Notes: generated by a model not told the origin, from the sequence alone. DNA of 64,000 nt from Thermodesulfobacteriota bacterium (GCA_965205855.1 OZ242184.1:886570-950569); one strand, 5' to 3'. Counted from the first letter of the stretch, positions 4,645 through 52,050 are shown. A program made the numbers and translations.

Positions 4645-5742
4645 TTATTCCGTCCCCACAATTTCCGCAACAGAGTCAACCCCCTCCCTTTCCATAAAAC
4701 GCGCGATGCCCCTGTTGATTTGAGACGCGACACCGGAGCCCTCTCCCCTTATTGCCGTAAATACCTGAACGGCATTCGCTCCGGCTTTGATTTTCTCAAG
4801 AGCGGTTTTCGTATCCTTTACCCCGCCAGAGCCGATAATTGTCATTTTCCCTCCGGTCTGCGAGCGGATGTATCTAATCCGGTTTGTTGAGAGTTTTCTG
4901 TAACCCTCATCATCACCGCTTATTCCGCCGCTTTCGTCCTTCCATCTTGCGCCGTATTTTGATTTTATCCCGGAAGAACTGGTTGTGTTCGTGGCAATAA
5001 TGCCCGATGCGCCAGTTGTTTCAACCGCTTCAATCACCTCGTCTGTTTCAGAATGTGAAATCTCAGGAGATATTTTCACATAAACAGGAATTTTTTTGTC
5101 TTGTGAGGCAATTGTAACGACACTTTGAAGTATTTGATAAAGTGCATCTCTGCGCTGTAAATCCCTTAATCCCGGCGTATTCGGGGAGCTGACATTAACG
5201 GCGAAATATGACGCGAACGGAAGCAGTTTCCGAGCAACCGCCGCATGGTCTTTCGGAGCGTTTTCCGATGGAACTCCTCTGTTGAAACCGATGCTTATTC
5301 CTATGGGAATTGGGAACGGAGCAGTGTTTTGAAGGTTTTGGGCAACCCCCCCTGCGCCCGGGCTGTTAAAACCGAGCCGATTCAGGAACACTCCGGGGGC
5401 CAGAGAGAAAAGGCGCGGTTTCGGATTTCCGGGTTGGGGATGAAGGGTTACCGAACCAATTTCCACGCAAGAAAAACCGAGAGCGTAGATACCGGAAATT
5501 GCCCTTCCCTTTTTGTCCCAACCCGCCCCGACAATAAGCGGGTTTTCAAGGCGCAGACCGTCAATCTCAACCTCAAGCCGCTTATCTTTGAACCTTCTCC
5601 CGCTGTTTGCGGCAAGCTCGGCAAGCAAAAGCGTAATTCGCGTTTTAGCGGCAAAATGCAACCCTTCAACTGCAAGAAAATGAAGGGTTTCGGAATCTAA
5701 TCTGTCAAGAAACGGGCTTACAAAATTTTTATAGATTGACAT
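4645..5742 (-). CDS. pyrD: dihydroorotate dehydrogenase (quinone), class 2
   Basis: Class 2 PyrD with N-terminal membrane-association extension. FMN-binding TIM barrel motifs GFNSPG, GANAVQVFT. Confidence 0.9.
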   Translation of the reverse strand: MSIYKNFVSPFLDRLDSETLHFLAVEGLHFAAKTRITLLLAELAANSGRRFKDKRLEVEIDGLRLENPLIVGAGWDKKGRAISGIYALGFSCVEIGSVTLHPQPGNPKPRLFSLAPGVFLNRLGFNSPGAGGVAQNLQNTAPFPIPIGISIGFNRGVPSENAPKDHAAVARKLLPFASYFAVNVSSPNTPGLRDLQRRDALYQILQSVVTIASQDKKIPVYVKISPEISHSETDEVIEAVETTGASGIIATNTTSSSGIKSKYGARWKDESGGISGDDEGYRKLSTNRIRYIRSQTGGKMTIIGSGGVKDTKTALEKIKAGANAVQVFTAIRGEGSGVASQINRGIARFMEREGVDSVAEIVGTE

Positions 5743-5751
5743 TTCAACCCT

Positions 5752-6837
5752 CTACACATTGAAACGAAAAAGCATAATATCCCCGTCACAAACTTCATAG
5801 CCTTTTCCCTCGGCTCTCATTTTTCCGGCTTCCTTCGCCGCCGATTCGGAACCGGCGACGATGAAATCTTCATATTTTATTGTTTCCGCCCTTATAAAAC
5901 CTTTTTCAAAATCGGAATGAATAACTCCCGCCGCCGCAGGCGCCTTTGTTCCCAGTTTTATAGTCCACGCCTTCACCTCCTTGGGTCCGGCGGTGAAATA
6001 GGTTATAAGTCCCAAGCCTTTGTAAGCCGCTTGCACAAGTTTTTCAAGTCCTGTTCTGTCAATGCCCATTTCATTGAAGAACTCTTCCCTTTCTTCAAGG
6101 TCAAGCCCTGATATTTCTTCTTCTATTTTCGCGCAGATGTTCACTACGGGGCTTGAGGTTTTCTGTGCGTGAAGTTCCACCTGTTTTGAAAATTCGGACT
6201 CCCGCGCCACATCATCAATATTGCACACATACAAAACCGGCTTCGCGGTCAGCAAAAAAAGTTGCTGTTCTTTCTCAATCTCAAGCCAATCACAATGGCC
6301 GCGGACGGAATTGCCGTCTTCAATAAACTCTCTCAGTTTTCTAACATCAGACAGCTGTTTTTTTATGTCTTTGTCGCCGCTTTTGGCTTGCGTAGCAAGT
6401 TTCTGTTCTTTTTTTTCCAGAGTTTCAAGATCTTTCAATATCAGTTCGGTCTCAATTGTCTCAATGTCACGCCCGGGATTCAAAACGCCGTCAACATGCG
6501 TAACATCACCGTCCTCAAAACATCGGACGACATGAACTATTAAATCCATCTCGCGTATATGAGAAAGAAAAGCGTTGCCCTTGCCCTTGCCCTCGGACGC
6601 GCCCTTCACAATTCCCGCGATGTCAACAAACTCGATAAAAGCCGGAACCATTTTTTCGGGTTTCACAAATGACTGTATTTTTTCAAGCCGCTCGTCAGGA
6701 ACCGCAGCAACACCGATGTTCGGCTCTATTGTGCAGAAAGGGAAGTTTGCTGCTTCCGCGTTTCCGTTAGAAAGAGAGTTGAAAAGTGTTGATTTGCCCA
6801 CATTGGGAAGCCCTACCACGCCGCATTTGAGTCCCAT
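5752..6837 (-). CDS. ychF: redox-regulated ribosome-binding ATPase YchF
   Basis: MGLKCGVVGLPNVGKSTLFN P-loop, TGS domain at the C-terminus. The ORF-track start at 6915 is TTG and overlaps tRNA-His. The internal ATG (MGLKCG) at 6837 is the likely start. Confidence 0.9.
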   Translation of the reverse strand: MGLKCGVVGLPNVGKSTLFNSLSNGNAEAANFPFCTIEPNIGVAAVPDERLEKIQSFVKPEKMVPAFIEFVDIAGIVKGASEGKGKGNAFLSHIREMDLIVHVVRCFEDGDVTHVDGVLNPGRDIETIETELILKDLETLEKKEQKLATQAKSGDKDIKKQLSDVRKLREFIEDGNSVRGHCDWLEIEKEQQLFLLTAKPVLYVCNIDDVARESEFSKQVELHAQKTSSPVVNICAKIEEEISGLDLEEREEFFNEMGIDRTGLEKLVQAAYKGLGLITYFTAGPKEVKAWTIKLGTKAPAAAGVIHSDFEKGFIRAETIKYEDFIVAGSESAAKEAGKMRAEGKGYEVCDGDIMLFRFNV

Positions 6838-6870
6838 AATTTTTTCTTTCCTGGTATTTCCCTTTAAAAG

Positions 6871-39505: not shown

Positions 39506-42115
39506 CTAAATTGACTCAACAACACCGGCGGACATTTCAATCGCTTCGGCAACCCCTTCGGGACGGTCTCCGCCCGCCTGCGCGAGCACGGGCTTTCCGC
39601 CTCCTCTGCCGCCAATCAGCGGGGCAATCTCCTTGATGATTTTCCCCGCGTGAAACCTGTCTGAAATATCCTTTGTAACCCCGACAAGGATAAATGCCTT
39701 TCCCTCGCGCACGCCGCCAAGCACCGCGACCCCGCCTTTAATTTTCGCGCGTATCCCGTCCCACAATTCCCTCAACTCTTCGGGGCCGCAGTCCGGAACT
39801 TCGCGTGAAAGAAACCGCGCTCCGTTAATTTCCTTCATGCCGGATATCATCTCACCGGCGCCTTTCATAAGAGCGCTTTTTCTGCGCACACCAGACTCCT
39901 TTTCGAGCTCCGTGTTACGCTCAAGCAGTTTTCCGATTTTTTCCGCAACCGCTCCCGGAGCAACTCCGAGCATCTTTGCGGCGCGCGCAAGAGTCCTTTC
40001 GTTTTCCAGAGCGCGTTTGTACGCCGCCTCATGGCAAACCGCCTCTATTCTTCTCACTCCCGCGCTTGAAGCGGATTGCGAAACTATGCTGAACATTCCC
40101 GCCTCCGCGGAGTTGGCAATATGAGTTCCGCCGCACAGCTCAACGCTGTATCCGCCGATTGAAACCACCCTGACCCTGTCGCCGTATTTCTCCTCAAAAA
40201 TCGCCATTGCCCCCCCTTTCAGCGCCTCTTCGTAAGAAACATCCGCTCTTGTAACAACCTCGTCCGCGCGTCTTATTTTCTCATTCACCATATCTTCAAT
40301 CCCCTTAATGTCTTCGTGGCTCACGGGCGAGTGGTGTGTGAAGTCAAACCGCAATCTGTCCGGGGCGACAAGCGAGCCCGCCTGTGAAACATGGGTTCCG
40401 AGTTTGTCCCTCAAAACGGAGTGCAGTATGTGAGTCGCGGTGTGGTGCGCGCACGCGGCGCGTCTGCAGCTTTTGTCAACTGAAAGGCGCACGGTGTCTC
40501 CGGGGCGAACCGCGCCTTTTTCAATCACGGCGCGGTGGCGGATAATACCCGCGATGGGGCGGGTTGTGTCAATCACTTTCGCAAAAAACCCGTCCCCCTC
40601 AATGGTTCCCGTGTCTCCCGCCTGTCCTCCGGACTGTGCGTAAAAAGGCGTTGAATCGGTAACAATGTCCGCTGTGATGTCAGAATTTGCGAAAAAAACA
40701 ACCTTGCCCGTCCCTTCGGTGGCTTCGTAGCCGGTAAAAGCCGATGAGAAACCCGCGGAAACAAGTTCCGACAAACCCCCGCCGCCGTCTTCGGTGCCTT
40801 TCCACGACCCTTTTGACTGCTCTTTCTGTTTTGCCATCTCTTTGTCAAAACCTTCCCTGTCAACCCCGATATTTTTTTCCCTGAGCACATCCTCGGTCAA
40901 TTCAAGCGGAAAACCGTACGTGTCGTAAAGTTTGAAAGCCACATCGCCGGAAAGTTTTTCACCGCTTGAAAGTTTTTTCACTTCGCTCTCAAGAATCTCA
41001 AGCCCTCTGTCTGCGGTTTCAAGAAAACCCTCCTCTTCTTTCATCACGATTTGAGCCGCAAACTCGGTTTTTTCCACAAGTTCGGGATAGGTTCCGGCAA
41101 GTGTGCCGGAGACCGCGCCGAGGATTTTGAAAAGAAACGGCTCATTTGTGCCGAGGGTTTTCGCATGGCGCGCGGCTCTTCTGATAATTCTTCTAAGAAC
41201 ATAGCCCCTACCTTCGTTTGAGGGAAAAATCCCGTCCGCGATAAGAAACACAGCGGCGCGCGCATGGTCTGCGATAACGCGCATGCCGCTGTCAATCCTG
41301 CCTCCCTTTCCATCTGTGTATTTTATTTGCGAAAGTTCTTCAATCCGCCCGATTACGGGGCGAATCAGGTCGGTTTCGTAGTTTCCGGGCGCTCCCTGTA
41401 TGACCGCCGTTATCCTTTCAAGTCCCATCCCCGTGTCTATGTTCGGAAGAGGAAGGGGTTTTGTCTCGCCGGATTCATTCTGTTCATACTGCATAAAAAC
41501 AAGGTTCCACAACTCAAGGTAGCGGTCGCAGTCGCAGCCCGGCGCGCACTCCGGTTTACCGCATCCGGTTTTTTCGCCCTGGTCTATGAGAATTTCCGAA
41601 CACGGCCCGCACGGCCCCACATCTCCCATAGTCCAGAAGTTGCTTTCGTCTCCCATGCGCAGAATGTGGGATTGCTCAAGCCCCGCTTCTTTGCGCCAGA
41701 TTTCAAACGCTTCGTCATCGTCCTTGTAGACGGTAACCCAGAGTTTATTTTTGGGAAGTCGGAAAACATTTGTCATCAAATCCCATGCGAAATGCACGGC
41801 GTCCTGTTTGAAATAGTCGCCGAATGAAAAATTGCCGAGCATTTCAAAAAATGTGTGATGCCGTGCCGTGTATCCGACATTGTCCAGATCGTTATGTTTT
41901 CCGCCCGCTCTCAAGCATTTCTGCGACGAGACCGCGCGTTTGCTGGCGGGAGGCTGTTCGAGTCCGAGAAAGATGTTTTTGAACGGAACCATCCCCGAAT
42001 TGGTAAAAAGAAGAGTCGGGTCTTGCACGGGGATAACGGGTGCGCTTCTTACACGCTTGTGGCCGTTTTTTTCAAAGTAAGAAAGAAAAGTTTCCCTTAT
42101 TTCGTTTCCGGTCAT
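39506..42115 (-). CDS. alaS: alanine--tRNA ligase
   Basis: 869 aa. Class II core, HxxxH/CxxxH editing domain, C-terminal DHHA1. Confidence 0.92.
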   Translation of the reverse strand: MTGNEIRETFLSYFEKNGHKRVRSAPVIPVQDPTLLFTNSGMVPFKNIFLGLEQPPASKRAVSSQKCLRAGGKHNDLDNVGYTARHHTFFEMLGNFSFGDYFKQDAVHFAWDLMTNVFRLPKNKLWVTVYKDDDEAFEIWRKEAGLEQSHILRMGDESNFWTMGDVGPCGPCSEILIDQGEKTGCGKPECAPGCDCDRYLELWNLVFMQYEQNESGETKPLPLPNIDTGMGLERITAVIQGAPGNYETDLIRPVIGRIEELSQIKYTDGKGGRIDSGMRVIADHARAAVFLIADGIFPSNEGRGYVLRRIIRRAARHAKTLGTNEPFLFKILGAVSGTLAGTYPELVEKTEFAAQIVMKEEEGFLETADRGLEILESEVKKLSSGEKLSGDVAFKLYDTYGFPLELTEDVLREKNIGVDREGFDKEMAKQKEQSKGSWKGTEDGGGGLSELVSAGFSSAFTGYEATEGTGKVVFFANSDITADIVTDSTPFYAQSGGQAGDTGTIEGDGFFAKVIDTTRPIAGIIRHRAVIEKGAVRPGDTVRLSVDKSCRRAACAHHTATHILHSVLRDKLGTHVSQAGSLVAPDRLRFDFTHHSPVSHEDIKGIEDMVNEKIRRADEVVTRADVSYEEALKGGAMAIFEEKYGDRVRVVSIGGYSVELCGGTHIANSAEAGMFSIVSQSASSAGVRRIEAVCHEAAYKRALENERTLARAAKMLGVAPGAVAEKIGKLLERNTELEKESGVRRKSALMKGAGEMISGMKEINGARFLSREVPDCGPEELRELWDGIRAKIKGGVAVLGGVREGKAFILVGVTKDISDRFHAGKIIKEIAPLIGGRGGGKPVLAQAGGDRPEGVAEAIEMSAGVVESI

Positions 42116-42179
42116 TTAATTGCCGTCCGTGGCGCGACAGAGTGAAGTGGGAAAAGACGCACGCGGGGAATTGAGAAAA

Positions 42180-42434
42180 TCACTCTGCGGGAGAAACGAC
42201 CGAGACGGTGTTTCTTTTTCCTTTGCGGAATTTCACAACTCCGTCTGCAAGAGCAAAAAGCGTCCAGTCCCGTCCGGTTCCGACATTGTCTCCGGCGTGA
42301 AAAGAAGACCCTCTCTGGCGGATGATGATGTTTCCCGCTTTGACGACTTCTCCGCCGAATTTTTTAACGCCGAGCCGTTTGCCCGCCGAATCTCTTCCGT
42401 TTCTTGAACTGCCGCCGCCTTTTTTTGTGGACAT
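42180..42434 (-). CDS. rpmA: 50S ribosomal protein L27
   Basis: [25 protein letters not shown]-terminus. Confidence 0.9.
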
Positions 42435-42446
42435 TCTCTGTCTCTC

Positions 42447-42764
42447 CTACCCTTTTATACCGGTTATGCGAACCGATGTGTATCTCTGCCGGTGTCCGGC
42501 TTTAAGTCTGTATTTTTTGCGTCTTTTGAATTTAAAAACGGTAATTTTAGGTCCTTTCTTCTGAGAGACGATTTCGCCTTTAACTTCCGCTCCGTCAACA
42601 ACGGGAGTACCCACGCGCGCCTCACCCTCTCCGTCCGAAACCATAAGCACATCGGGAAATCCGATCGTGTCTCCGGGGCTACCCTCGATTTTTTCTATGT
42701 CAAGAACATCTCCGGATTTGACCAAGTACTGTCTGTTTCCTGTTCTTATTACTGCCTGCTGCAT
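42447..42764 (-). CDS. rplU: 50S ribosomal protein L21
   Basis: MQQAVIRTGNRQYLV N-terminus and C-terminal KKYRLKAGHRQ. Confidence 0.9.
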   Translation of the reverse strand: MQQAVIRTGNRQYLVKSGDVLDIEKIEGSPGDTIGFPDVLMVSDGEGEARVGTPVVDGAEVKGEIVSQKKGPKITVFKFKRRKKYRLKAGHRQRYTSVRITGIKG

Positions 42765-42788
42765 AAAGATTGCTCCGCTCTTGGAAGG

Positions 42789-43547
42789 TCAATTATGCCA
42801 CAAAAAGGGATGGAGTGTCAAACTATACGGCGACCGCCTGATAGTCGGGGAGTTCACCCATTGTTTTCCCTCAAGAGCGCGTCCCGTCTTCTTTTTGTTC
42901 ACACCGCCCCATTGTTTGAAGAAAAACGGAACCCCGCTTTCAACGCAGTTGTCCCTGATTTCCGTAACCCATTCCTCTTTCATCGGTCTTGCGCCGGGGC
43001 CGGACTCTCCACCGACAATGACCCAGTCTATGCCTGACAAATTGAGGTTTGGAAACGGGGCAAGCAACGGTTCAAGAGAAAGAAACTTCACGCAAGCATC
43101 GGTCTGTTTTAAAACTTCTGTACGGGAAAGATATTTCTCGGACTCTACGCTTGTTCCCATCCAGATGTTGGAAGTCCAGTGCAGGTGTTTGTTCGCCTTC
43201 ACAACCCTTTCCGGTCTTTTTGTGAGAACCTGAAAAGTGTGTTGAGATGCTTCGTTCATAACTTCAAAAACGGACATAATGAATTTTGCGGGAACATCCT
43301 TGTGGAACAAATCGCTCATTGAATTGACAAAAACTATTTTCGGTTTTTTCCATTTAAGCGGGTCTTTCAAAGTGTGTTCATGAGTGGTGAGTTTGAAACC
43401 GTTTCTGTATTTCTCCATCCCTTGAGCGTGAAGCCGCTTTGCCATCCGCTCGGCGTAGCAGTATTTGCAACCGTGGCTGATTTTTGAACAACCGGTAATG
43501 GGGTTCCATGTTGTGTGAGTCCATCCTATTTTGGAGGGTTGGGTCAT
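42789..43547 (-). CDS. phage Gp37/Gp68 family (DUF5131) three-Cys-motif protein
   Basis: N-terminal [26 protein letters not shown] matches the family's GWxxxTWNPxxGC..C..CY signature (C-x6-C-x2-C). The ATG overlaps the res stop (TAATG). Confidence 0.75.
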
Positions 43548-46090
43548 TACTGTTTGTTGATAACACCGTTTATATCGTCCCGCCAGCTGTCTTCAAACAT
43601 CATCCTGAAAGTAGCGGGCGTCTTATTGATGGCCATTTCGCCTCTGTCAAGGGCGATCCTGTATGTTTTTTCAAGCGTGTCGAGCAATTTTTTCTTGTAA
43701 CTCGTATCTTCGCTGCCTTTCAGGTGGATGCCCTTTGTTTCCAGAATTAGCAGTTTTCCGTTATCTTTTCGGCAGGCCACAAAATCGGGATACACGCGCT
43801 GGCGTCGCCAGCCTTGCAGATAGTACGCTTGTCTTGCAGCTATTCTGTGCCACCAGTAGATGGCGTTGCTCTTATCCAGATAAAGCGCAAAATCCCGCTC
43901 CAGACCGTTAAAACTACTTTCATAAACAGGTTCAAAAAGGTTTTGCTGTATAGGTCTGCCATGTTCGCTCTGTAATGATCTTTCTTGACTGGAAACAAAA
44001 ACCTCGAACGACTTGCTCAATTCGTAGTCCAGTCGCTGGTCGGTCTCAAGGTGAAACCGAATCACATTCCGCCCAACCTTTTCCCGAAACACCGCTTCGG
44101 CCTCGTCGTCTATGGCCTTGTTCACGCGGCGGCTCAATTCTTCGGAAAGGTAAATTCGGTTATTCAACAATTTGCTTTCATCGTGTTTCCTGTTTTTATG
44201 TGTTTGAATAAACCCCTCCGCCATGCGCGCCGCCTGCCACGGATTGGGCACCTTGTCCACAAGCCGCCGAACAAAATAATCCACGCTCAGCCGCTTTTCG
44301 CTGTCAGGGATTTGTTCCGAAGCCTTAACCTGCCCTTGAATGTCCACCGTGGTTTTGATCTCCTGAGTGATGTCTCTATCATCCAGATTCACCGCTGCGC
44401 CCGCGTCAATGGTGTCCCAATCAATCGCGCTTAATATATCGCGGTCGTAATCAATGGGGCGCCAGGTGCGCCCCGCTTTGTGTAACACCTGCGGGAGAAA
44501 AATTTTCAATGGCCGGTATTTACCACGACGTTTGACGGTGGTCGGTTTCGGTGCATCGCCCTCGCCATGCCCGTGAACAAAATCGCCAAGCCCGGTCAGC
44601 CCTTCATTCTCCAGGCCGGCCTTCACGCCTTTGATCGCCTTGCCTACGACCTGATTATAGCAATAGATATAACACTGGTTCAGCGCATCGCCTTGTGCGA
44701 TTCTGCGTGCATGGGGTTGCCGCATCACCCGACCGACCATTTGCGTGATGGCGGTGGTTGCGGTGGTGTTATCCAGCAAGGCAAGCAGATATGCAAACGA
44801 GCAATCCCAGCCTTCTTTCAGCGCGTCTTTGGTGATAATCCAGCGCACCTCGCTTGTCTCGCTCAACAAATCCTCACCCGCAAGTTCCTTGCGTTCCGAT
44901 GATTGAATCCTGATGTGATTCTCCGGCACAGCAAGATTTTGTATCAGGTATTCGCGCGCATCCTCCGAATGAATTTTTCCTTGCCCTCTTTGTTTTGCGC
45001 CCGTTCTTTCCACCCTGACCAAAGCGATGGGTCGGATATGGCGGTTTTCCTGTTCCTGTAATTTTTGCGCCGCACTTTCAAGCTCATCCAGTTTTTCCTG
45101 TGTTTTGGCAAGCGTGTGTTCCCAGTCGGAATTGCTGAAACTGTGAATCTCTATCGGCAGTTTGATCATCTCCTCGTCCTGGAGGTCGCGGCCCGATGTG
45201 TTGACCAGGATATTGCTGATGCCGATTTTCGGCGTGGCGGACAGTTCAAGCACAAAACGGGGGTTGAGCCGGTTGACGGATTTGACAAACTCCTGGTTGT
45301 TTTGATTATTCGGTCCATATGCTTTATGCGCTTCGTCCAAAATCACCGTGGGACGAATCAGTTTCAGCACATTGATCAGGCTTTGCTTAACCCAGTCGCC
45401 GGGTGCATTTTTCTCCAGGTCGGGATGGTGTTCCGAAAGCGTTGCATTGGCCGCCGCGTCATCCTGCTCGGGAAAAAACGACATATACCCGCTGCTGTCG
45501 CGGAATATTTTGAGAAACTCCCTGTTCTTTTGCCGGTTGGCGGAGGGTAGCATCAGCAGCATAATGCAAAGATAGTTTTCGGTATCCTGTCGGGTAAAGC
45601 GGTCGGTTTTTTGCAACAATTTGACCCTGCCGCCAGACATATGTTCGAGCATCTGCCGGTAGGTATGTTCGCGGGTGTGGAACGCCTGGCGGGTCTGCTC
45701 GTAGATCGCCCGGGTCGGCACAATCCACAACACAAAGCCGGTATCCCGCTTGATCCGCTCAAGCGTGGCCACGCCCAACAGCGTCTTGCCGCCGCCGGTC
45801 GGCACCTTCAGGCAAACATGCGGGATGGGTTCGCCGGATGCCGCAGTGCGGGAAATGTAGCCGGGAACTGCCATGTCACCGTCTTGGGAAATGCCGGGGA
45901 GGATATTTTGATCTTTCAGCGCCTTCCAAGCTAAGAGGGGATAGTTTTGCAGTTCTTCAGGAATATCAATCCCCGACTCTTCAAGAGCTTTGCCCGCCTT
46001 TTCACTAGTCAGCCGCGCTTCCTTGAGCGCGTCCAGCCAGCGGTCTAACTGTTCAAGAGCTTGTTGCTGATAGTTTTTCAGGGAGAGCAT
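43547..46090 (-). CDS. res: Type III restriction enzyme Res subunit (SF2 helicase plus C-terminal PD-(D/E)xK nuclease)
   Basis: Walker [13 protein letters not shown] box [11 protein letters not shown] (LSATP), motif [12 protein letters not shown]-terminal VYPDF...LILETKG nuclease core. Start set at the internal ATG ([10 protein letters not shown], 46090) abutting the upstream ORF. The ORF track extends to 46225. Confidence 0.8.
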
Positions 46091-46091
46091 A

Positions 46092-46649
46092 TCACGGATT
46101 TTTTGAGTCAGTACTGTCTGAATTATTTGGCAAATTGATGATTTCAACAGGCACATTCCTTTTACCAACTGCAAGACCGACAGCGTAGTTACGGATAATA
46201 GTTTGATCCATTTCCATATCCGCATAGCCTTGTGGATAGTACGAACCCCTTAGAATTTCCATCTGTTCTACCTTAAAATCTAGCACCTTGGCCATTGAGC
46301 TAAGCATCTCCGTGAGCAATTCCATTTGCTCCTTGCCGAGTCGTTCATAGTGCGAACGAGAATCATTTTCTTCGTTAGGCCTCTTAGCATGCGTTTCACC
46401 ATAATGCTTGCGGAGTGCTGCCCATTTTTCTATAACTTCTTTATGCTTAACAAATTCTATCTCAACCAGATTAATGGCTCCGACATAATCAGGTGATAAA
46501 CGCGCATTTCGTGTACGCATTAACGTCTTGAATATATCCATTTTTCGCGCCTTTTGTTCGCGCCATCTGTCAAGAAGACCGTTAACCCAGACAGCTGCGC
46601 AAGGACCGATTAAGATGGCTGCAATGGTGATGATAGAATATGAATTCAT
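46092..46649 (-). CDS. hypothetical membrane-anchored protein (single N-terminal TM), embedded between mod and res
   Basis: ATG start, N-terminal hydrophobic helix IITIAAILIGPCAAVWV, then a charged helical region. 2-nt gap to the mod stop and 1-nt gap to the res start. Visibly AT-richer than its neighbours. Confidence 0.55.
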   Translation of the reverse strand: MNSYSIITIAAILIGPCAAVWVNGLLDRWREQKARKMDIFKTLMRTRNARLSPDYVGAINLVEIEFVKHKEVIEKWAALRKHYGETHAKRPNEENDSRSHYERLGKEQMELLTEMLSSMAKVLDFKVEQMEILRGSYYPQGYADMEMDQTIIRNYAVGLAVGKRNVPVEIINLPNNSDSTDSKNP

Positions 46650-46651
46650 GT

Positions 46652-48291
46652 TTATCTTATACCCTCATATGGTAATTGGGCAAAAGTTATCCCCATCTCG
46701 GTTAATGCTTTTTGTCCCATGAATTTGTGAGTGGCGAACACCACCGCGGTTTTCTTTTTTGCCTTGGCCTGTTTGGCGATGCGTTCGGCGCGGGTGCTGT
46801 TCAAAGCGGAATCCGCACTGCGCAGAAAATCAAGGTTCGGCTCGTAGATCAGGTAAAACATTTTGTCACCTGCTTCATAAAATAAACCGTCTTTGCCACG
46901 CCTTGTTTTCGGGTTGAGTTTATGCGGCGATTGTCCGCTTGCGGTATAGATCAGATGGCGGGCAAAGGTTTCATAGCCCGGCAGGTTCCTGCCGGTGAGC
47001 ATTTTTTCAATGCTGATTTCATCGCCCAGTGTGCAATAGGCAAAACTGCCGCCCAGTCCGTTTTTTAGGTTCTCATCCTTTGCTTTTGGTATGCCCTTTA
47101 TCACACGGCGAACGCGCTCGGCGGTGATTTTGTCGGCGTAGTCTTCGCATTCCACCAAGATAAATTTGCGGTTGCCGCCGTCTTCCTTGTTCAGCGCAAG
47201 CACGGCGTGGGCAGTGGTGCCGGAACCGGCGAAGGAGTCGAGGATAATGGCGTTTTTTGTCGTTGCCAGTTGTAAAATCTTTTTCACAAGGGAAATTGGT
47301 TTGGGGTTTTGGAACTGATTAGAACCAAACACCGTCCTCAACTCGATTGTGCCGTTGGTTGTTGTACCTACATCATCCCACCAAGTGCTAGGCGTTAACC
47401 CCCTTCGGCGTGCCTCTGACAAAAAACGTTTGCGCTGAGGTCTGGAACTATTTCTCTTTCCGAATACGATTCTATTGTCTGCAAGAAGCTCCTCAAATTT
47501 GTTCAAATCGTTTTTCCAGCAATTACCTTCAGTGGGGTAAAATATTTCTTTTGTTTTAGGGTTTCTTATCGGATACATCTGATTAGGTCGAACCCCACCA
47601 GCCTCAAATGGATCCGCCTTCCATGGGCCTCTCGGATCATTATCAGGATTTTTGAATCCTTCTAAAATGGCAGGAAGTTTGAAATCTTTTCTAATGGTTT
47701 TTAATACATTCAGTTGTTTAGCATAAGCTATATTATGAGTGTGTGATATTGATACTAATGCAGGATTTGTAATTGATTTTGTGCTATGCCACACAAAATC
47801 TGCAACAAAATTCTCCTCCCCAAAAATCTCATCCATGACCATCCGCAGGCGGTGCTGTTCATTGTCGTCGATGGAAATAAAAATTACGCCATCTTCGGCC
47901 AGCAATTCTCTTAACAACTGCAATCTTGGCCACATCATGCACAGCCATTTGTCGTGCCGCTCCAGGTCTTCGCCATCCACCGGACTTTTGCCTTTCAGCC
48001 ACGCCTTCATCATCGGGCTGTTGACATTGTCGTTATAGACCCATTTCTCATTGCCGGTGTTGTAGGGCGGGTCGATGTAAATGCAGTTGACGCGGCTGGC
48101 ATAGCGCGGCAGCAACGCCTTGAGCGCGTGCAGATTGTCGCCGTGGATAATCAGATTGTCATCAAGGGAAGGGTTACCCCCCCATTTTTCGCTGAAAGAG
48201 ATTTTTTAGTGTCTATCTCAAGTGTCCTGGACGGAACAGTCAGGTGGTGCGCATAAATGAGTTGCTTCCCTTTGAAATCAATTGTCGGCAT
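46652..48291 (-). pseudogene. mod: Type III R-M Mod subunit (beta-class N6-adenine/N4-cytosine DNA methyltransferase), frameshifted at a G7 homopolymer (phase-OFF or sequencing slip)
   Basis: The in-frame body 46652..48115 carries DPPY (motif IV, CIYIDPPYN) and FAGSGTT (motif I). Upstream in the same frame there is NLIIHGDNLHALKALL but no start, and a stop codon follows. An ATG at 48291 opens frame +1 (MPTIDFKGKQLIYAHH..) and ends 47 codons later. The two frames join if the G7 tract at 48177..48183 is 8 G. Confidence 0.75.
48177..48183 (-). repeat. poly-G7 (C7 on the plus strand) simple sequence repeat inside the mod 5' region
   Basis: gggttaccccccca on the plus strand. Homopolymer tracts at the 5' end of Type III mod genes are the classic phase-variation switch. 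Confidence 0.8.
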
Positions 48292-48448
48292 TGAAAACCC
48301 CGTAAATCAGTTTGATATTGGCTTTGAAGATACCCGATTTACTCCCCCAACCTAAACCCCTCAACCTCCCGATGCACCGCCCCTTCCCGTCTCAATTCAC
48401 TCTCCATCAAACAAACTCTTTCAGAAGCAAAACCAAGTTCAAACTGCG
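48285..48448 (+). repeat. direct repeat A: copy of the thpR 3' end (last 36 codons, 48339..48448 on the minus strand) plus about 54 bp downstream. Identical to repeat B
   Basis: 164 bp identical by eye to 51106..51269. The minus strand encodes ..LPQFELGFASERVCLMESELRREGAVHREVEGFRLGE*, compared with native ThpR ..LPQFKLEFVSDRVCLMESELRREGAVHREVEGFRLGE*. The mod ATG lies inside this repeat. Confidence 0.8.
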
Positions 48449-48830
48449 CCCGCGGTGACATGGAGAACCGGATCAAGGATCAGCAGTTGGATTTGTTTGC
48501 GGATCGCACCTCTTGTCACCGCTGGTGGCCCAACCAGTGCCGGCAGTTGCTGTCAGGGTTGGCTTACACGTTGATTGAGGGATTGCGGCGCCTTGCACTA
48601 CAGGGCACCGAACTGGCCAAAGCCAGTCCTCACAGGATCAGGCTGACACTGCTTAAAATCGGTGCCGTGATCATCCGCAACACGCGCCGCATCCGCCTAC
48701 TGATGAGCAGTGCTTATCCCCATCAGGCGTTGTTCCGCACGGCAGCCTATCGGCTCAACTCCCCATAAACCCAACCCAGTGCTGCCCCGGCATGTTGATA
48801 AACAATGGGGGTAGGGGGAGTTGCGCCCGA
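48449..48830 (+). mobile_element. IS1380-family-like insertion sequence remnant (3' end only). The right boundary is approximate
   Basis: Begins abruptly at the repeat A junction and encodes only the C-terminal 100 aa of a DDE transposase. Downstream GGGGTAGGGGGAGTTGCGC could be a terminal inverted repeat. Confidence 0.5.
48460..48768 (+). pseudogene. transposase C-terminal fragment (IS1380/IS4-like)
   Basis: ENRIKDQQLDLFADRTSCHRWWPNQCRQLLSGLAYTL resembles the conserved C-terminal block of IS1380-family transposases (ENRIKE..L..ADRLSCH..ANQ.RL). The N-terminal roughly 350 aa are absent. Confidence 0.6.
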
Positions 48831-48959
48831 AATCTGTGAACAACGAAAGAATTGATCAAAGAACAGGCAACTGCATCATATGATGCATCGACAGGGATGG
48901 CGCTACCGAAAAATCGACCACCACCGCTTCACTCATGAAATATCCGGGATAGTCTCGCT

Positions 48960-50099
48960 TTATTTTCGGATGAGAAACAGAAATTCTTTATTCGGATCGC
49001 TGGATTCCCGCAACCACTCATTTGTCCATTTCATGGCGGCCATCACATTTTTTTTATACTCAATTTTTGCGCTATCCACAATTTCTCCGTTACGCGTTAT
49101 CACCTCGTTTAATTCCTCCGCGGTTGCTCGTCCACCGGAACTGTAAGAGAGCAAGATCCATCGGCAAGGAGTTTCCTTCAGCAAACGCTCTATGGCTTCC
49201 ACCACAACCAATCGTCCTGATTTGCTTCTACGAAATTCCTCGAACACTGAAGTCGCCACTTTATCGGATGTGTCTTTTCTGCGGAGGGACTTGCCAAATA
49301 GCACGGGATGATCATTTTTACATATGGTCGTCCACAAATGATAATATGAAGCGTACCGAACCCTTGAAGGTGGCATTTTTTCATTGTTTGACCCATACGG
49401 AGGATCAAAATAAGCAAGATCGGCGTCCGCTTCGGGAAGTACCTTAAAAACATCACCACACAGCACCGTGTTTTCGATTTCATTTTTCCACAACCGTGGC
49501 ACTTTCAATTGTAAATTTTTGAATGAACGCGGCGACCAATCTTTTAAATAAGAAACAAAATGACCAAGAGTACTGTCTATCTCATTCAACCCTAAAATCA
49601 GGCTTGTCAATGCCACACTTTTGGAAACGTCATCCAGCATCAAGGCATCGATCTCTCTCCTGATTGCATCAAGTTTTCTTGTATTTTTTTTCTGCCAAGG
49701 CTTTTTGGTTCCATCCTTCTGAATAGCATTATGGCAAGTTCCAGAGCGAACATCACCACCGTAATTCTCAGTAAACCATCCGTCTTCCGGAGGAAGCGAA
49801 TTTAAATGATCAATAAGAGGTTGGTATATTTTCGGGTTTTTTAAGTTTTTCAAATAGCACGTGGCAAAAATTCTTGACCATTCGGAAATATCATTTGATA
49901 CCACGCGATATCCTGCTTGTGCAAAAGATTGACTTACTCTGGTGGAGCCTGAAAAACCGTCAAAAATGCTTTTTGCTCCGGTCTGTTTTGACAGATTAAA
50001 AATATGTGGAAGCAGTTTCAGTTTTGAGCCTGCGTAATTGATGCCTTCGGTTTTTGGAACATCAATCCAATCACGAAAAATTTGAACTTGCCCTTGCAT
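48960..50099 (-). CDS. Dam-family (D12 class, alpha-type) N6-adenine DNA methyltransferase
   Basis: NYAGSKLKLLP (compare Dam WAGGK), FDGFSGS (motif I) and YFDPPYG (motif IV) in the alpha-class order. Has a C-terminal extension of about 100 aa. AT-rich. Confidence 0.8.
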   Translation of the reverse strand: MQGQVQIFRDWIDVPKTEGINYAGSKLKLLPHIFNLSKQTGAKSIFDGFSGSTRVSQSFAQAGYRVVSNDISEWSRIFATCYLKNLKNPKIYQPLIDHLNSLPPEDGWFTENYGGDVRSGTCHNAIQKDGTKKPWQKKNTRKLDAIRREIDALMLDDVSKSVALTSLILGLNEIDSTLGHFVSYLKDWSPRSFKNLQLKVPRLWKNEIENTVLCGDVFKVLPEADADLAYFDPPYGSNNEKMPPSRVRYASYYHLWTTICKNDHPVLFGKSLRRKDTSDKVATSVFEEFRRSKSGRLVVVEAIERLLKETPCRWILLSYSSGGRATAEELNEVITRNGEIVDSAKIEYKKNVMAAMKWTNEWLRESSDPNKEFLFLIRK

Positions 50100-50776
50100 T
50101 ATGTAACTTTAAAGCGGGAAGCCTGCTTGAGTCTAACAATATCATCTTTCACTTTTGCAAGAGCCTCATTCTGGCCGAAATCAGAAGAAACAAGCGCGTG
50201 AGAAAATAGTTGGACCAAGATAGGATTGTGAGAATAATCAACCCATCCATTGGTTATGCTATCAAAATAGTTTAAACCACTTTTTGTATGAGTCCAAAGC
50301 CCTCGCTGGAGGGCATTGGCGGTTGCGCTTCCATAACGCACCTCGCAAATATAAGAATCGCTTGCATCGTAGAAACGATATACTGGGTGCTTTCTACCTT
50401 TCTTTTTTGTTTCTTTTACTATTTTCACCGTTTCAGTTTCAGCGCGGTGGTAATCGAAGACAAGAATATTACACTGTCGATTTTTTTCGTCATAAATTAA
50501 TGGCAAAACATTTACATTGTAAAAATCCGAGAAAGCGGGGTCGGCAAGCACTCGTTGTACATTTTTCTTGCCCACTATTTCATCCCCCTCTTGTGCCAAT
50601 CTCGGAAACATTTTGAAATTCTTGTCGGTTGAAAGTTGAAGGGGACCATCACCATACGCTTTGATGCTAACAGGAAATTCAGCTTCGGTTACTTCATTTA
50701 TTATTTTGATGTCTTCTTCCCGAGATTTGGCTCTGTATAAATCTTTGCCAACATGGATCGAGCGAAAATCATACAT
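50099..50776 (-). CDS. hypothetical protein. Putative Type II restriction endonuclease partner of the Dam-like methyltransferase (by context only)
   Basis: Co-oriented with the methyltransferase gene, start-stop overlapping it. AT-rich. No motif I can name from sequence. Confidence 0.4.
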   Translation of the reverse strand: MYDFRSIHVGKDLYRAKSREEDIKIINEVTEAEFPVSIKAYGDGPLQLSTDKNFKMFPRLAQEGDEIVGKKNVQRVLADPAFSDFYNVNVLPLIYDEKNRQCNILVFDYHRAETETVKIVKETKKKGRKHPVYRFYDASDSYICEVRYGSATANALQRGLWTHTKSGLNYFDSITNGWVDYSHNPILVQLFSHALVSSDFGQNEALAKVKDDIVRLKQASRFKVT

Positions 50777-50777
50777 A

Positions 50778-50987
50778 CTACTGGTTGATAAATTCGGCTA
50801 TGGCGATTTCTGCCAAATCTCCATGTGTTTTATTTCCAATGAGGCGCATGGTGAAAATGTTGCTCAATGTCAAGATTATTAAATCCGGGCGTTTACTCGC
50901 AAGAAGCTTCAATCTCGAGATGAAATCTTTATATGGATCATTTTTCATGTTTTTCGTTTGATGCCTCTGTTTTGGTATTTTTATCAA
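50778..50987 (-). CDS. small ORF (TTG start). It may be the N-terminal part of the downstream endonuclease gene split by a frameshift, or a separate small gene
   Basis: Its stop lies 1 nt from the ATG of the 225-aa ORF, in another frame. Combined length would be about 294 aa. Confidence 0.25.
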   Translation of the reverse strand: MIKIPKQRHQTKNMKNDPYKDFISRLKLLASKRPDLIILTLSNIFTMRLIGNKTHGDLAEIAIAEFINQ

Positions 50988-51105
50988 CCTTCATTTTTCA
51001 GATCGTCGCATGAGCTTGGGTTGAGATGATTCGGTAGCGTCATCGAGAATTCATGTGTATCAATTGCTGTTCAAGTTTAACCCGTTTTGCCTGTAAATCA
51101 CCCAA

Positions 51106-51269
51106 TCGGCATTGAAAACCCCGTAAATCAGTTTGATATTGGCTTTGAAGATACCCGATTTACTCCCCCAACCTAAACCCCTCAACCTCCCGATGCACCG
51201 CCCCTTCCCGTCTCAATTCACTCTCCATCAAACAAACTCTTTCAGAAGCAAAACCAAGTTCAAACTGCG
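51106..51269 (+). repeat. direct repeat B: identical to repeat A
   Basis: 164/164 identity with 48285..48448 on visual alignment. Continues on the high-coordinate side into more thpR-homologous sequence. Confidence 0.8.
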
Positions 51270-51338
51270 GCAATTCGGGTAGCTTCATCCTTTTTTTTAT
51301 CCACCCTATCGTAACGTGCGACATAAAATCCCGTTATT
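51160..51338 (-). pseudogene. thpR 3' fragment (last 57 codons), diverged copy
   Basis: Encodes RDFMSHVTIGWIKKRMKLPELPQFELGFASERVCLMESELRREGAVHREVEGFRLGE*, compared with native RDFIPHITIGRIRKRIKLPELPQFKLEFVSDRVCLMESELRREGAVHREVEGFRLGE*. There is a stop codon immediately upstream in frame. Confidence 0.75.
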
Positions 51339-51461
51339 GTAGGCTGCTGTTATGTGTAACGGAGTTTCATATGAAAATTCTCTGCTATGAGCAATTGTGG
51401 TCACTGGGATTCTCACAATTGCTGGTTGTGCGAGCCAGCCAGATTTGACAATGACTCAGTA

Positions 51462-51872
51462 TTAGTGCTCGCCCTCTTGATTAATTTGTTTCCACAAACT
51501 GCCGATAGCAAGTAGTGCTGGAATAATAAGTAGCACCACTACAATTGGCACACTTGATTTAATTACCTCTACATTTAATGCATATACGGTAATAACATCG
51601 GATATGTCCGTCAATAATCTGACAATTAATATCGCTAAAAGTGCTTTATGAGACTTAAGGAATAAAGCAACTATTATCCCTATAACTACCATTACATTTC
51701 TTGTAATGTAAAGTTGTGTAACATAATTCAATTCGGAAACCTCTGGTATGAAACCACTTGGGTTCATGGCCGTACCAGCTGAGAAGAAAAGCACTAAAGA
51801 TATTTGTATTAGAACAATGACCCATACCCAAATAGGTAAGAATCCATTGGTTTGACCATTTTTGTAATTCAT
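51462..51872 (-). CDS. hypothetical 4-TM membrane protein
   Basis: Four hydrophobic helices and an ATG start. AT-rich. Lies between repeat B and native thpR. Confidence 0.55.
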   Translation of the reverse strand: MNYKNGQTNGFLPIWVWVIVLIQISLVLFFSAGTAMNPSGFIPEVSELNYVTQLYITRNVMVVIGIIVALFLKSHKALLAILIVRLLTDISDVITVYALNVEVIKSSVPIVVVLLIIPALLAIGSLWKQINQEGEH

Positions 51873-52050
51873 ATTTGCAACCTCTTATTTTTACCTAATT
51901 ATCACTTAAACTAAGCAGAGTTTCAAGATATTTTCCGGCATCGGCGGCGTTTTGAGCGCTGCATAAGCAAGTCTCGGTATTAACTCGCACAAATCAAAGC
52001 GACGATTGAAACGATACTGAAATTCTGACAAATAACGCTGTGCGTATTTT

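Follow-up and report, generated by a model that had tools for sequence, protein, structure and literature searches.

A solo DUF5131 gene kept under purifying selection, whose overlap with a type III restriction operon is best explained by recent insertion

Does a gene that shares a base with the end of a restriction operon take part in restriction? The question is raised by a stretch of 64,000 nucleotides from a Thermodesulfobacteriota bacterium (GCA_965205855.1 OZ242184.1:886570-950569; the whole stretch is referred to as the window), where a gene for a protein of the DUF5131 family directly follows res, the restriction subunit gene of a type III restriction-modification (R-M) system. The operon order is mod - DUF6680 - res - DUF5131, all on the minus strand, and the conserved flank of this variable island begins downstream with rplU:

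46652..48115, minus strand: mod, type III modification methyltransferase (PADLOC MTase_III, 9e-146; Pfam N6_N4_Mtase)
46092..46649, minus strand: DUF6680, cargo between mod and res (Pfam PF20385, 5.9e-47)
43547..46090, minus strand: res, type III restriction subunit, 847 aa from the ATG at 46090 (PADLOC REase_III, 7.3e-213; Pfam ResIII)
43545..43549, minus strand: TAATG overlap, one base shared between the res TAA (43547-43549) and the DUF5131 ATG (43545-43547), read from the sequence
42789..43547, minus strand: DUF5131 (PF07505) ORF, intact, solo (no TcmP), radical-SAM-like (Pfam, PADLOC, conserved columns, dN/dS)
42447..42764, minus strand: rplU, ribosomal protein L21, conserved flank of the variable island (Pfam Ribosomal_L21p, 7.4e-36)

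Mod and Res are encoded in one operon, as in type III systems. The genes are tightly packed: the stop codon of mod and the start codon of DUF6680 lie 2 nt apart, res most likely starts at the ATG at 46090, 1 nt after the DUF6680 stop, rather than at 46225, and DUF5131 follows mod-res on the same strand with no predicted terminator in between. Beyond it lie rplU, a probable rpmA, and alaS. The original prediction had suggested a role in DNA modification or in the control of restriction from the position after res, and the TAATG overlap on which it drew is indeed there. Whether the overlap carries this meaning is another matter, to which the identity of the protein, the history of the junction, and the habits of the family all contribute.

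The ORF starts with ATG, encodes 252 aa, and is the only DUF5131 copy in the 64-kb window. Its match to PF07505 (E 3.8e-98; 328.3 bits compared with a gathering cut-off of 28.9) aligns residues 5-234 with profile positions 2-243 of 243, that is, with the full domain, which bears out the proposed family. PADLOC assigned the protein to PDC-M41B (1.7e-117) and PDC-M30B (7.8e-115). The predicted three-cysteine motif C-x6-C-x2-C is likewise present, within the N-terminal signature (I/G)WTxxTWNPxxGC-x6-C-x2-CY (in the translation: [13 protein letters not shown]20-SKISHG-C27-KY-C30-Y). The codons of C20 (43488-43490), C27 (43467-43469), and C30 (43458-43460) specify residues that are invariant in an alignment with 28 homologs, and at none of the 42 columns that are at least 95% conserved across 270 family members does the window protein deviate.

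43458..43490, minus strand: three-cysteine motif C20-x6-C27-x2-C30, from the translation; predicted [4Fe-4S] ligands
42792..42835, minus strand: non-homologous C-terminal tail of DUF5131 (alignment ends near P234; blocks of homology to locus L082 end at 42836 and resume at 42823)

Full-length match, cysteine motif, and every highly conserved column are thus shared with the family, and the only protein-level peculiarity of the window copy is a private tail: family homology ends near P234, and the last ∼16 residues are non-homologous. Homology to L082, a locus with a closely related gene, covers only the ORF and resumes 12 nt further on, at the conserved rplU promoter region; the tail is read from this region, which accounts for its being private.

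Regarding the chemistry, RadicalSAM.org (SFLD-derived table) lists DUF5131 as radical SAM Megacluster-5-2 and spore photoproduct lyase (SPL) as 5-3, in agreement with the Fe-S or radical-SAM-like signature that had been predicted. Homology to TIGR04471 ("radical SAM mobile pair protein A"; NCBIfam) is detectable over residues 17-212 (E 3.3e-24), yet sub-threshold: at 85.6 bits compared with a cut-off of 355, the window protein is not a member, and no pair-B partner is present here. PF04055 (Radical_SAM) did not match the window DUF5131 at E ≤ 0.01, and the cysteine spacing is C-x6-C-x2-C, compared with the canonical C-x3-C-x2-C of radical SAM proteins. A cofactor-free AlphaFold2 model calculated with 28 homologs (mean pLDDT 80.7, pTM 0.80) is of low confidence in the cysteine loop and in the private C-terminal tail; it contains a partial (β/α) TIM-barrel core, which in this model is closest to SPL. 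Of the structure prediction and fold search that had been suggested, the first part yielded this barrel; in the second, Foldseek returned nothing at E ≤ 0.001, although SPL ranked highest in probability. A profile search of PDB sequences gave chance matches only, and no SPL at E ≤ 1. In the fold comparison, SplB is 12% identical to the window protein, and its cysteines are spaced C-x3-C-x2-C; the window protein probably falls outside the SPL family. The window DUF5131 is intact and probably belongs, as a divergent member, to the radical SAM superfamily. We considered whether the invariant GGESG might be the "GGE" SAM-binding motif of radical SAM enzymes, but in the model it comes after strand six instead of strand two, and the idea was dropped. 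Neither the Ophion radical SAM system nor DndC is related to DUF5131.

A literature search found no biochemical, genetic, or functional study of any DUF5131 protein or of TcmP, its usual partner (see below), which makes DUF5131 one of the largest radical-SAM-like families without known chemistry: it comprises 39,694 clusters at 50% identity (8,837 of them scoring below 1e-30), spread over bacterial and archaeal genomes. It is unusually conserved: the window protein shares 58-68% identity with members in Nitrospirota, Planctomycetota, Chloroflexota, Bacteroidota, and Methanoregula, and identity between bacterial phyla and archaea amounts to 60-70%. The statement that the family is otherwise known from phages did not hold, as it is mainly non-phage; only 178 of 50,697 phage records contain a homolog, all of them less than 60% identical.

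In most genomes, DUF5131 is paired with a second gene in a small mobile cassette. When 80 genomic loci were fetched and their ORFs called and clustered to find neighbors, the dominant one was a protein of ∼290 aa; its gene directly precedes DUF5131 on the same strand in 45 loci, and in 7 it lies directly downstream. It is TcmP (TIGR04474, 1.8e-46) and also matches PADLOC PDC-M30A/M41A. By iterated search, TcmP was detectable in 64 of 81 comparison loci, and ∼11 loci with adequate flanks were without it; on viral contigs, it accompanied DUF5131 in 43 of 69 loci and was missing from 26. The TcmP-less state, which amounts to about 15% of the sampled genomic and 38% of the sampled viral loci, is thus common. 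A natural DUF5131-TcmP fusion protein exists (P0148); of the long DUF5131 "fusion" proteins that were inspected for additional domains of interest, it alone could be interpreted. The TcmP profile matches RlmJ, the 23S rRNA m6A methyltransferase (4.4e-7), with the YxDxxAGxG and DP(P)Y motifs aligned, and TcmP partners are 13-22% identical while their DUF5131 proteins are ∼60% identical. By these profile matches, TcmP is a fast-evolving protein of RlmJ-like SAM-methyltransferase fold. The asymmetry in conservation (alignments of L002-L081) resembles that of a conserved catalytic subunit and a diversifying specificity subunit.

The arrangement TcmP>>DUF5131 corresponds to the PADLOC candidate defence systems PDC-M30/PDC-M41 (Payne et al., bioRxiv 10.1101/2024.01.29.577857), which were put forward because of their "guilt-by-embedding" within loci of BREX, DISARM, and type I R-M, and are defined in supplementary file 8 (B gene: FAM_00989, DUF5131; A gene: TcmP, TIGR04474). 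The DUF5131 family and the defence-island habitat of the pair are therefore known already. In the window, the B component is matched and lies beside R-M genes, the habitat where these candidates were found, but the adjacent A gene is absent from the whole window, so that the two-gene system is incomplete here. The proposal of a co-opted phage anti-restriction module gained no evidence either: the pair is published as candidate defence, and the only Pfam matches of the window protein were DUF5131 and, weakly, GP88, with none to a described anti-restriction family (ArdA/Ocr/Klc-type).

The absence of a TcmP-type partner, which the original prediction had noticed, was corroborated with a profile of 44 TcmP partners. 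It found none in the six-frame translation of the whole 64 kb (best E 2.4); the positive control, L085, gave 1.1e-62. Neither in the 35-nt junction described below nor in the sequence preceding the DUF5131 gene of L082 did a TcmP remnant reach significance. Stages of TcmP loss are seen among close relatives: TcmP is intact in L085, split between two frames near profile position 90 in L001 (9132..9993; the DUF5131 there is 83% identical to that of the window), reduced to a C-terminal remnant of the last ∼55 residues in L084, and gone in L083 and L082. The split in L001 may be a real frameshift or a long-read sequencing or assembly error. In a neighbor-joining tree, 8 of the 11 copies in the clade of the window are solo, and solo copies elsewhere are scattered singletons. 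TcmP has most likely been lost in the lineage of the window, and the timing of the loss relative to the split between the window and L082 is deduced by parsimony.

How, then, did DUF5131 and res come to touch? The overlap is best explained by recent insertion. On a 3.3-Mb contig (L168), the same module, with Mod 96% and Res 91% identical at the amino acid level (94% and 92% at the nucleotide level), lies between fusA and a sulfotransferase gene, where DUF5131 and TcmP are absent. DNA homology between the window and L168 extends over 48279..46689 and 46081..43582, the latter block corresponding to L168 12803..15302 at 92.1% (blastn). It stops at 43582, 35 nt before the res stop codon, and the last ∼11 Res residues differ:

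43550..43581, minus strand: junction segment, last ∼11 res codons ([11 protein letters not shown]), no homology to the res of L168

Because homology ends there, TAATG must sit where recombination joined the two sequences. The further Res relatives L169 and L170 (72% and 67% identity) are also without DUF5131, and a metagenome scan with Res gave two loci only, a number too small for statistics. The other side of the junction has a different history. In L082, a DUF5131 gene that is also solo (84% protein and 81% DNA identity to the window copy) resides in synteny with the window across rplU-rpmA-alaS (75% nucleotide identity), and on one side it is accompanied by a divergent MT-A70/N6_N4 methyltransferase/HNH set. 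Thus, DUF5131 is the older resident and the R-M module the newcomer, and the claim of restriction control from position is not supported: homology to a module without DUF5131 ends before the overlap, the closest Res relatives carry no DUF5131, and L082 keeps the solo gene beside different R-M genes. The locus is a warning on guilt by adjacency, since recombination can leave a stop and a start codon sharing one base, and joint function need not follow.

The resident gene is under strong purifying selection. Between the window and L082, dN/dS of DUF5131 is 0.080 at a dS of 1.24, which is similar to that of rplU (1.52), and among the four closest DUF5131 copies dN/dS ranges between 0.06 and 0.11. 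DUF5131 can consequently persist for long without TcmP, under selection as strong as that on a ribosomal protein gene. In L082, a pair composed of an AAA_21/AAA_15 ATPase and RloB (4989..6858) fills a 2-kb gap between DUF5131 and rplU. In the window this gap has shrunk to 12 nt, a difference that again points to the site as a hotspot for defence genes. The end of DUF5131 also contains a promoter-like site (42821..42792, minus strand; TTGACA-18-CATAAT with an upstream TG), which at a score of 11/12 is the best in 42000..51500, lies within the last DUF5131 codons, and is conserved with L082. From its sequence and place, it is likely the rplU promoter; with this predicted promoter inside the end of DUF5131, a transcript of the R-M genes and DUF5131 would read into the ribosomal protein genes.

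The sequence of events may be pictured as follows. Selection would have maintained a solo DUF5131 gene in the variable hotspot of defence genes that lies shortly before rplU, and a mobile type III mod-res module would then have recombined in recently beside it, ∼35 nt ahead of the DUF5131 start codon. As the junction is inside the 3′ end of res, the res frame continues in resident sequence and terminates at a TAA sharing one base with the ATG of DUF5131. DUF5131 would then be cotranscribed with mod-res by accident of insertion and not be a component of the R-M system. No Shine-Dalgarno-like sequence was read before its ATG (rplU has GGAG), and lacking a ribosome-binding site of its own, DUF5131 is probably translated by termination-reinitiation at TAATG. 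That a random junction should create exactly TAATG is somewhat unexpected, and the overlap may owe its form to selection that kept DUF5131 translated.

An enrichment of the family near R-M genes would still be expected if the two were functionally tied. Genes no more than two positions away from the pair included ResIII (4 of 123), N6_N4_Mtase (3), AAA_15/21, TIR, MADS components, EcoRV, and HsdR; most near neighbors of TcmP-DUF5131, however, were ordinary genes, and genes more than 6.5 kb away also included some defence genes. For 150 far genes, ResIII did not figure among the top families listed (p ∼0.04 if its count there is truly zero). DNA methyltransferases made up 1.5% of the near compared with 0.6% of the far genes (odds ratio 2.5, p 0.19); in 6 of 74 loci, window included, one lay no more than three genes away from DUF5131. 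The co-occurrence of PF07505 with R-M genes, which the original prediction had proposed as a check, is therefore not significant family-wide for DNA methyltransferases; the R-M and defence-island habitat is real but modest, and already published.

The operons in turn proved accommodating to many genes. From a second type III subfamily, with "BPTD_3080"-like Res (homologs of the Res of L001), five mod-res operons were randomly chosen (L171-L175); it is in this subfamily that TcmP-DUF5131 cassettes are sometimes embedded. None of the five contained DUF5131, which is a further count against a role in restriction control, and their cargo consisted of AAA_15/AAA_21 sets, DUF1828, M78-DUF4411, a Multi_ubiq/Prok-E2/ThiF/BubE set, and a CAP12-PCTIR TIR protein with a nucleotidyltransferase. 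Given this diverse and unrelated cargo, type III operons are evidently general landing sites. The gap between mod and res is occupied by DUF6680 in the window and by a 168-aa ORF and DUF1828 in L168 (11511..12796); with different inserts in modules that are otherwise 92-94% identical, it behaves as an exchangeable cargo slot. Like other R-M systems with embedded cargo (e.g., PrrC in type I R-M), the window has a tightly packed mod-X-res-Y array, but DUF5131 differs in being the older resident and in trailing res rather than lying between mod and res.

Against this background, a reading in which DUF5131 is a working R-M accessory, with Mod in place of TcmP as the base-flipping partner, appears unlikely. 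Such an accessory could, for example, take off the N6-methyl mark or build on it, or adjust restriction in another way. The shared strand, the missing terminator, and the stop/start overlap speak for it, but a nearly identical module exists elsewhere without DUF5131 and the junction lies inside the 3′ end of res. Because the fold of TcmP is N6-adenine-methyltransferase-like (RlmJ), a Mod-type substitute is conceivable; nevertheless, zero of three close Res relatives and zero of five operons of the second subfamily carry the gene. L019, L061, and L065 have TcmP-DUF5131 inserted between their res and mod genes, and in L077 the pair lies close to a related type III system; yet in the neighbor-joining tree the DUF5131 copies from these loci, which share an R-M subfamily, do not come out as one another's nearest relatives. 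All five of the closest copies with usable context (at least 77% identity: window, L001, L082, L084, L085) adjoin DNA methyltransferase genes, which could be a real functional tie rather than a shared habitat, and the phage Bakery couples a C5 methyltransferase directly to DUF5131. However, the R-M neighbors differ between the window and the syntenic L082, and across the family only the 6 of 74 loci mentioned above have a DNA methyltransferase within three genes.

Somewhat less improbable, though still doubtful, is that DUF5131 protects against phages autonomously, either alone or together with TcmP, and that it resides in a defence island while acting independently of R-M. This would agree with the assignment of PDC-M30/M41 by guilt-by-embedding, with neighbors that include MADS components, OLD/Gabija-like ATPases, TIR proteins, and type I and type III R-M systems, with the pair in the immunity/integrase region of the temperate phage Jablanski, and with the two R-M systems in the island of the window. 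PDC-M30 and PDC-M41 are candidates only, however, and neither TcmP nor DUF5131 is an obvious effector nuclease; the A component of the defined system is missing in the window, and the 26 of 69 viral loci with a solo gene among ordinary phage genes fit DNA modification or counter-defence equally well. Very unlikely is a decaying remnant of a broken TcmP-DUF5131 cassette without present function. Although the partner has been lost, read-through into the rplU promoter now supplies the C-terminus in place of the native one, and there is no own ribosome-binding site, dN/dS is ∼0.08-0.11 at a dS above 1, every highly conserved column has been kept, and the same solo gene, diverged as much as its rplU, has been kept in L082; solo copies are also frequent elsewhere.

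On balance we lean, if only slightly, toward a selected, TcmP-independent radical SAM protein that acts on nucleic acid and became a neighbor of the R-M system by insertion; this account is strong in its evolutionary and weak in its chemical part. The predicted [4Fe-4S] cluster on C20, C27, and C30 would reductively cleave SAM to yield a 5′-deoxyadenosyl radical, which in turn would take a hydrogen from a nucleic-acid substrate, either from a base or from a base methyl group. Normally, TcmP would provide target recognition by base flipping; here, DUF5131 would act alone or with a resident DNA methyltransferase. In wybutosine synthesis, the radical SAM enzyme TYW1 builds on a methyl group that was installed by the methyltransferase Trm5. 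It is this precedent, together with the RlmJ-like partner and the SPL-like fold, that suggests a nucleic-acid substrate, whereas the chemistry as such is derived from fold and partner only. A base-flipping partner of the RlmJ type, a structural relative in DNA repair, and persistence without TcmP make nucleic acid the substrate to test first. That the solo protein is a self-sufficient radical SAM enzyme acting directly on DNA, and thus the second such activity besides SPL, is an improbable extension; such an enzyme might, for instance, convert or remove the methyl mark of whichever DNA methyltransferase is next door, and, if real, this would explain why the gene is fixed in the lineage while adjacent R-M systems are exchanged. 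What remains of interest is the DUF5131 family itself and the long retention of a solo copy at a place where R-M systems turn over.

Some observations on related loci and on the remainder of the island may be added. In a Methanoregula MAG (L026, 8963..14970), a solo DUF5131 gene lies in a type I R-M neighborhood, flanked on one side by a gene for a DUF1828/DUF1829 protein and on the other by the genes for a Fic protein and, next to it, HsdR. In the Gordonia phage Bakery (L087, 1421..3975), the stop codon of gp63, the C5 methyltransferase, overlaps the start codon of gp64, a DUF5131 homolog of 324 aa; both lie beside replication genes, and no TcmP is present. As to a prophage origin of the island in the window, no integrase or phage gene was seen (the small ORFs in 48300-52000 being outside the annotation). 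Upstream of the type III operon, the island contains a second R-M system:

48960..50776, minus strand: type II R-M pair, D12-class methyltransferase and endonuclease (PADLOC MTase_II, 6.9e-162; REase_II, 1.3e-99)

The two genes of this pair overlap at start and stop and have a GC content of 0.39-0.42, compared with ∼0.50 around them; the pair is probably a separate acquisition in the same island.
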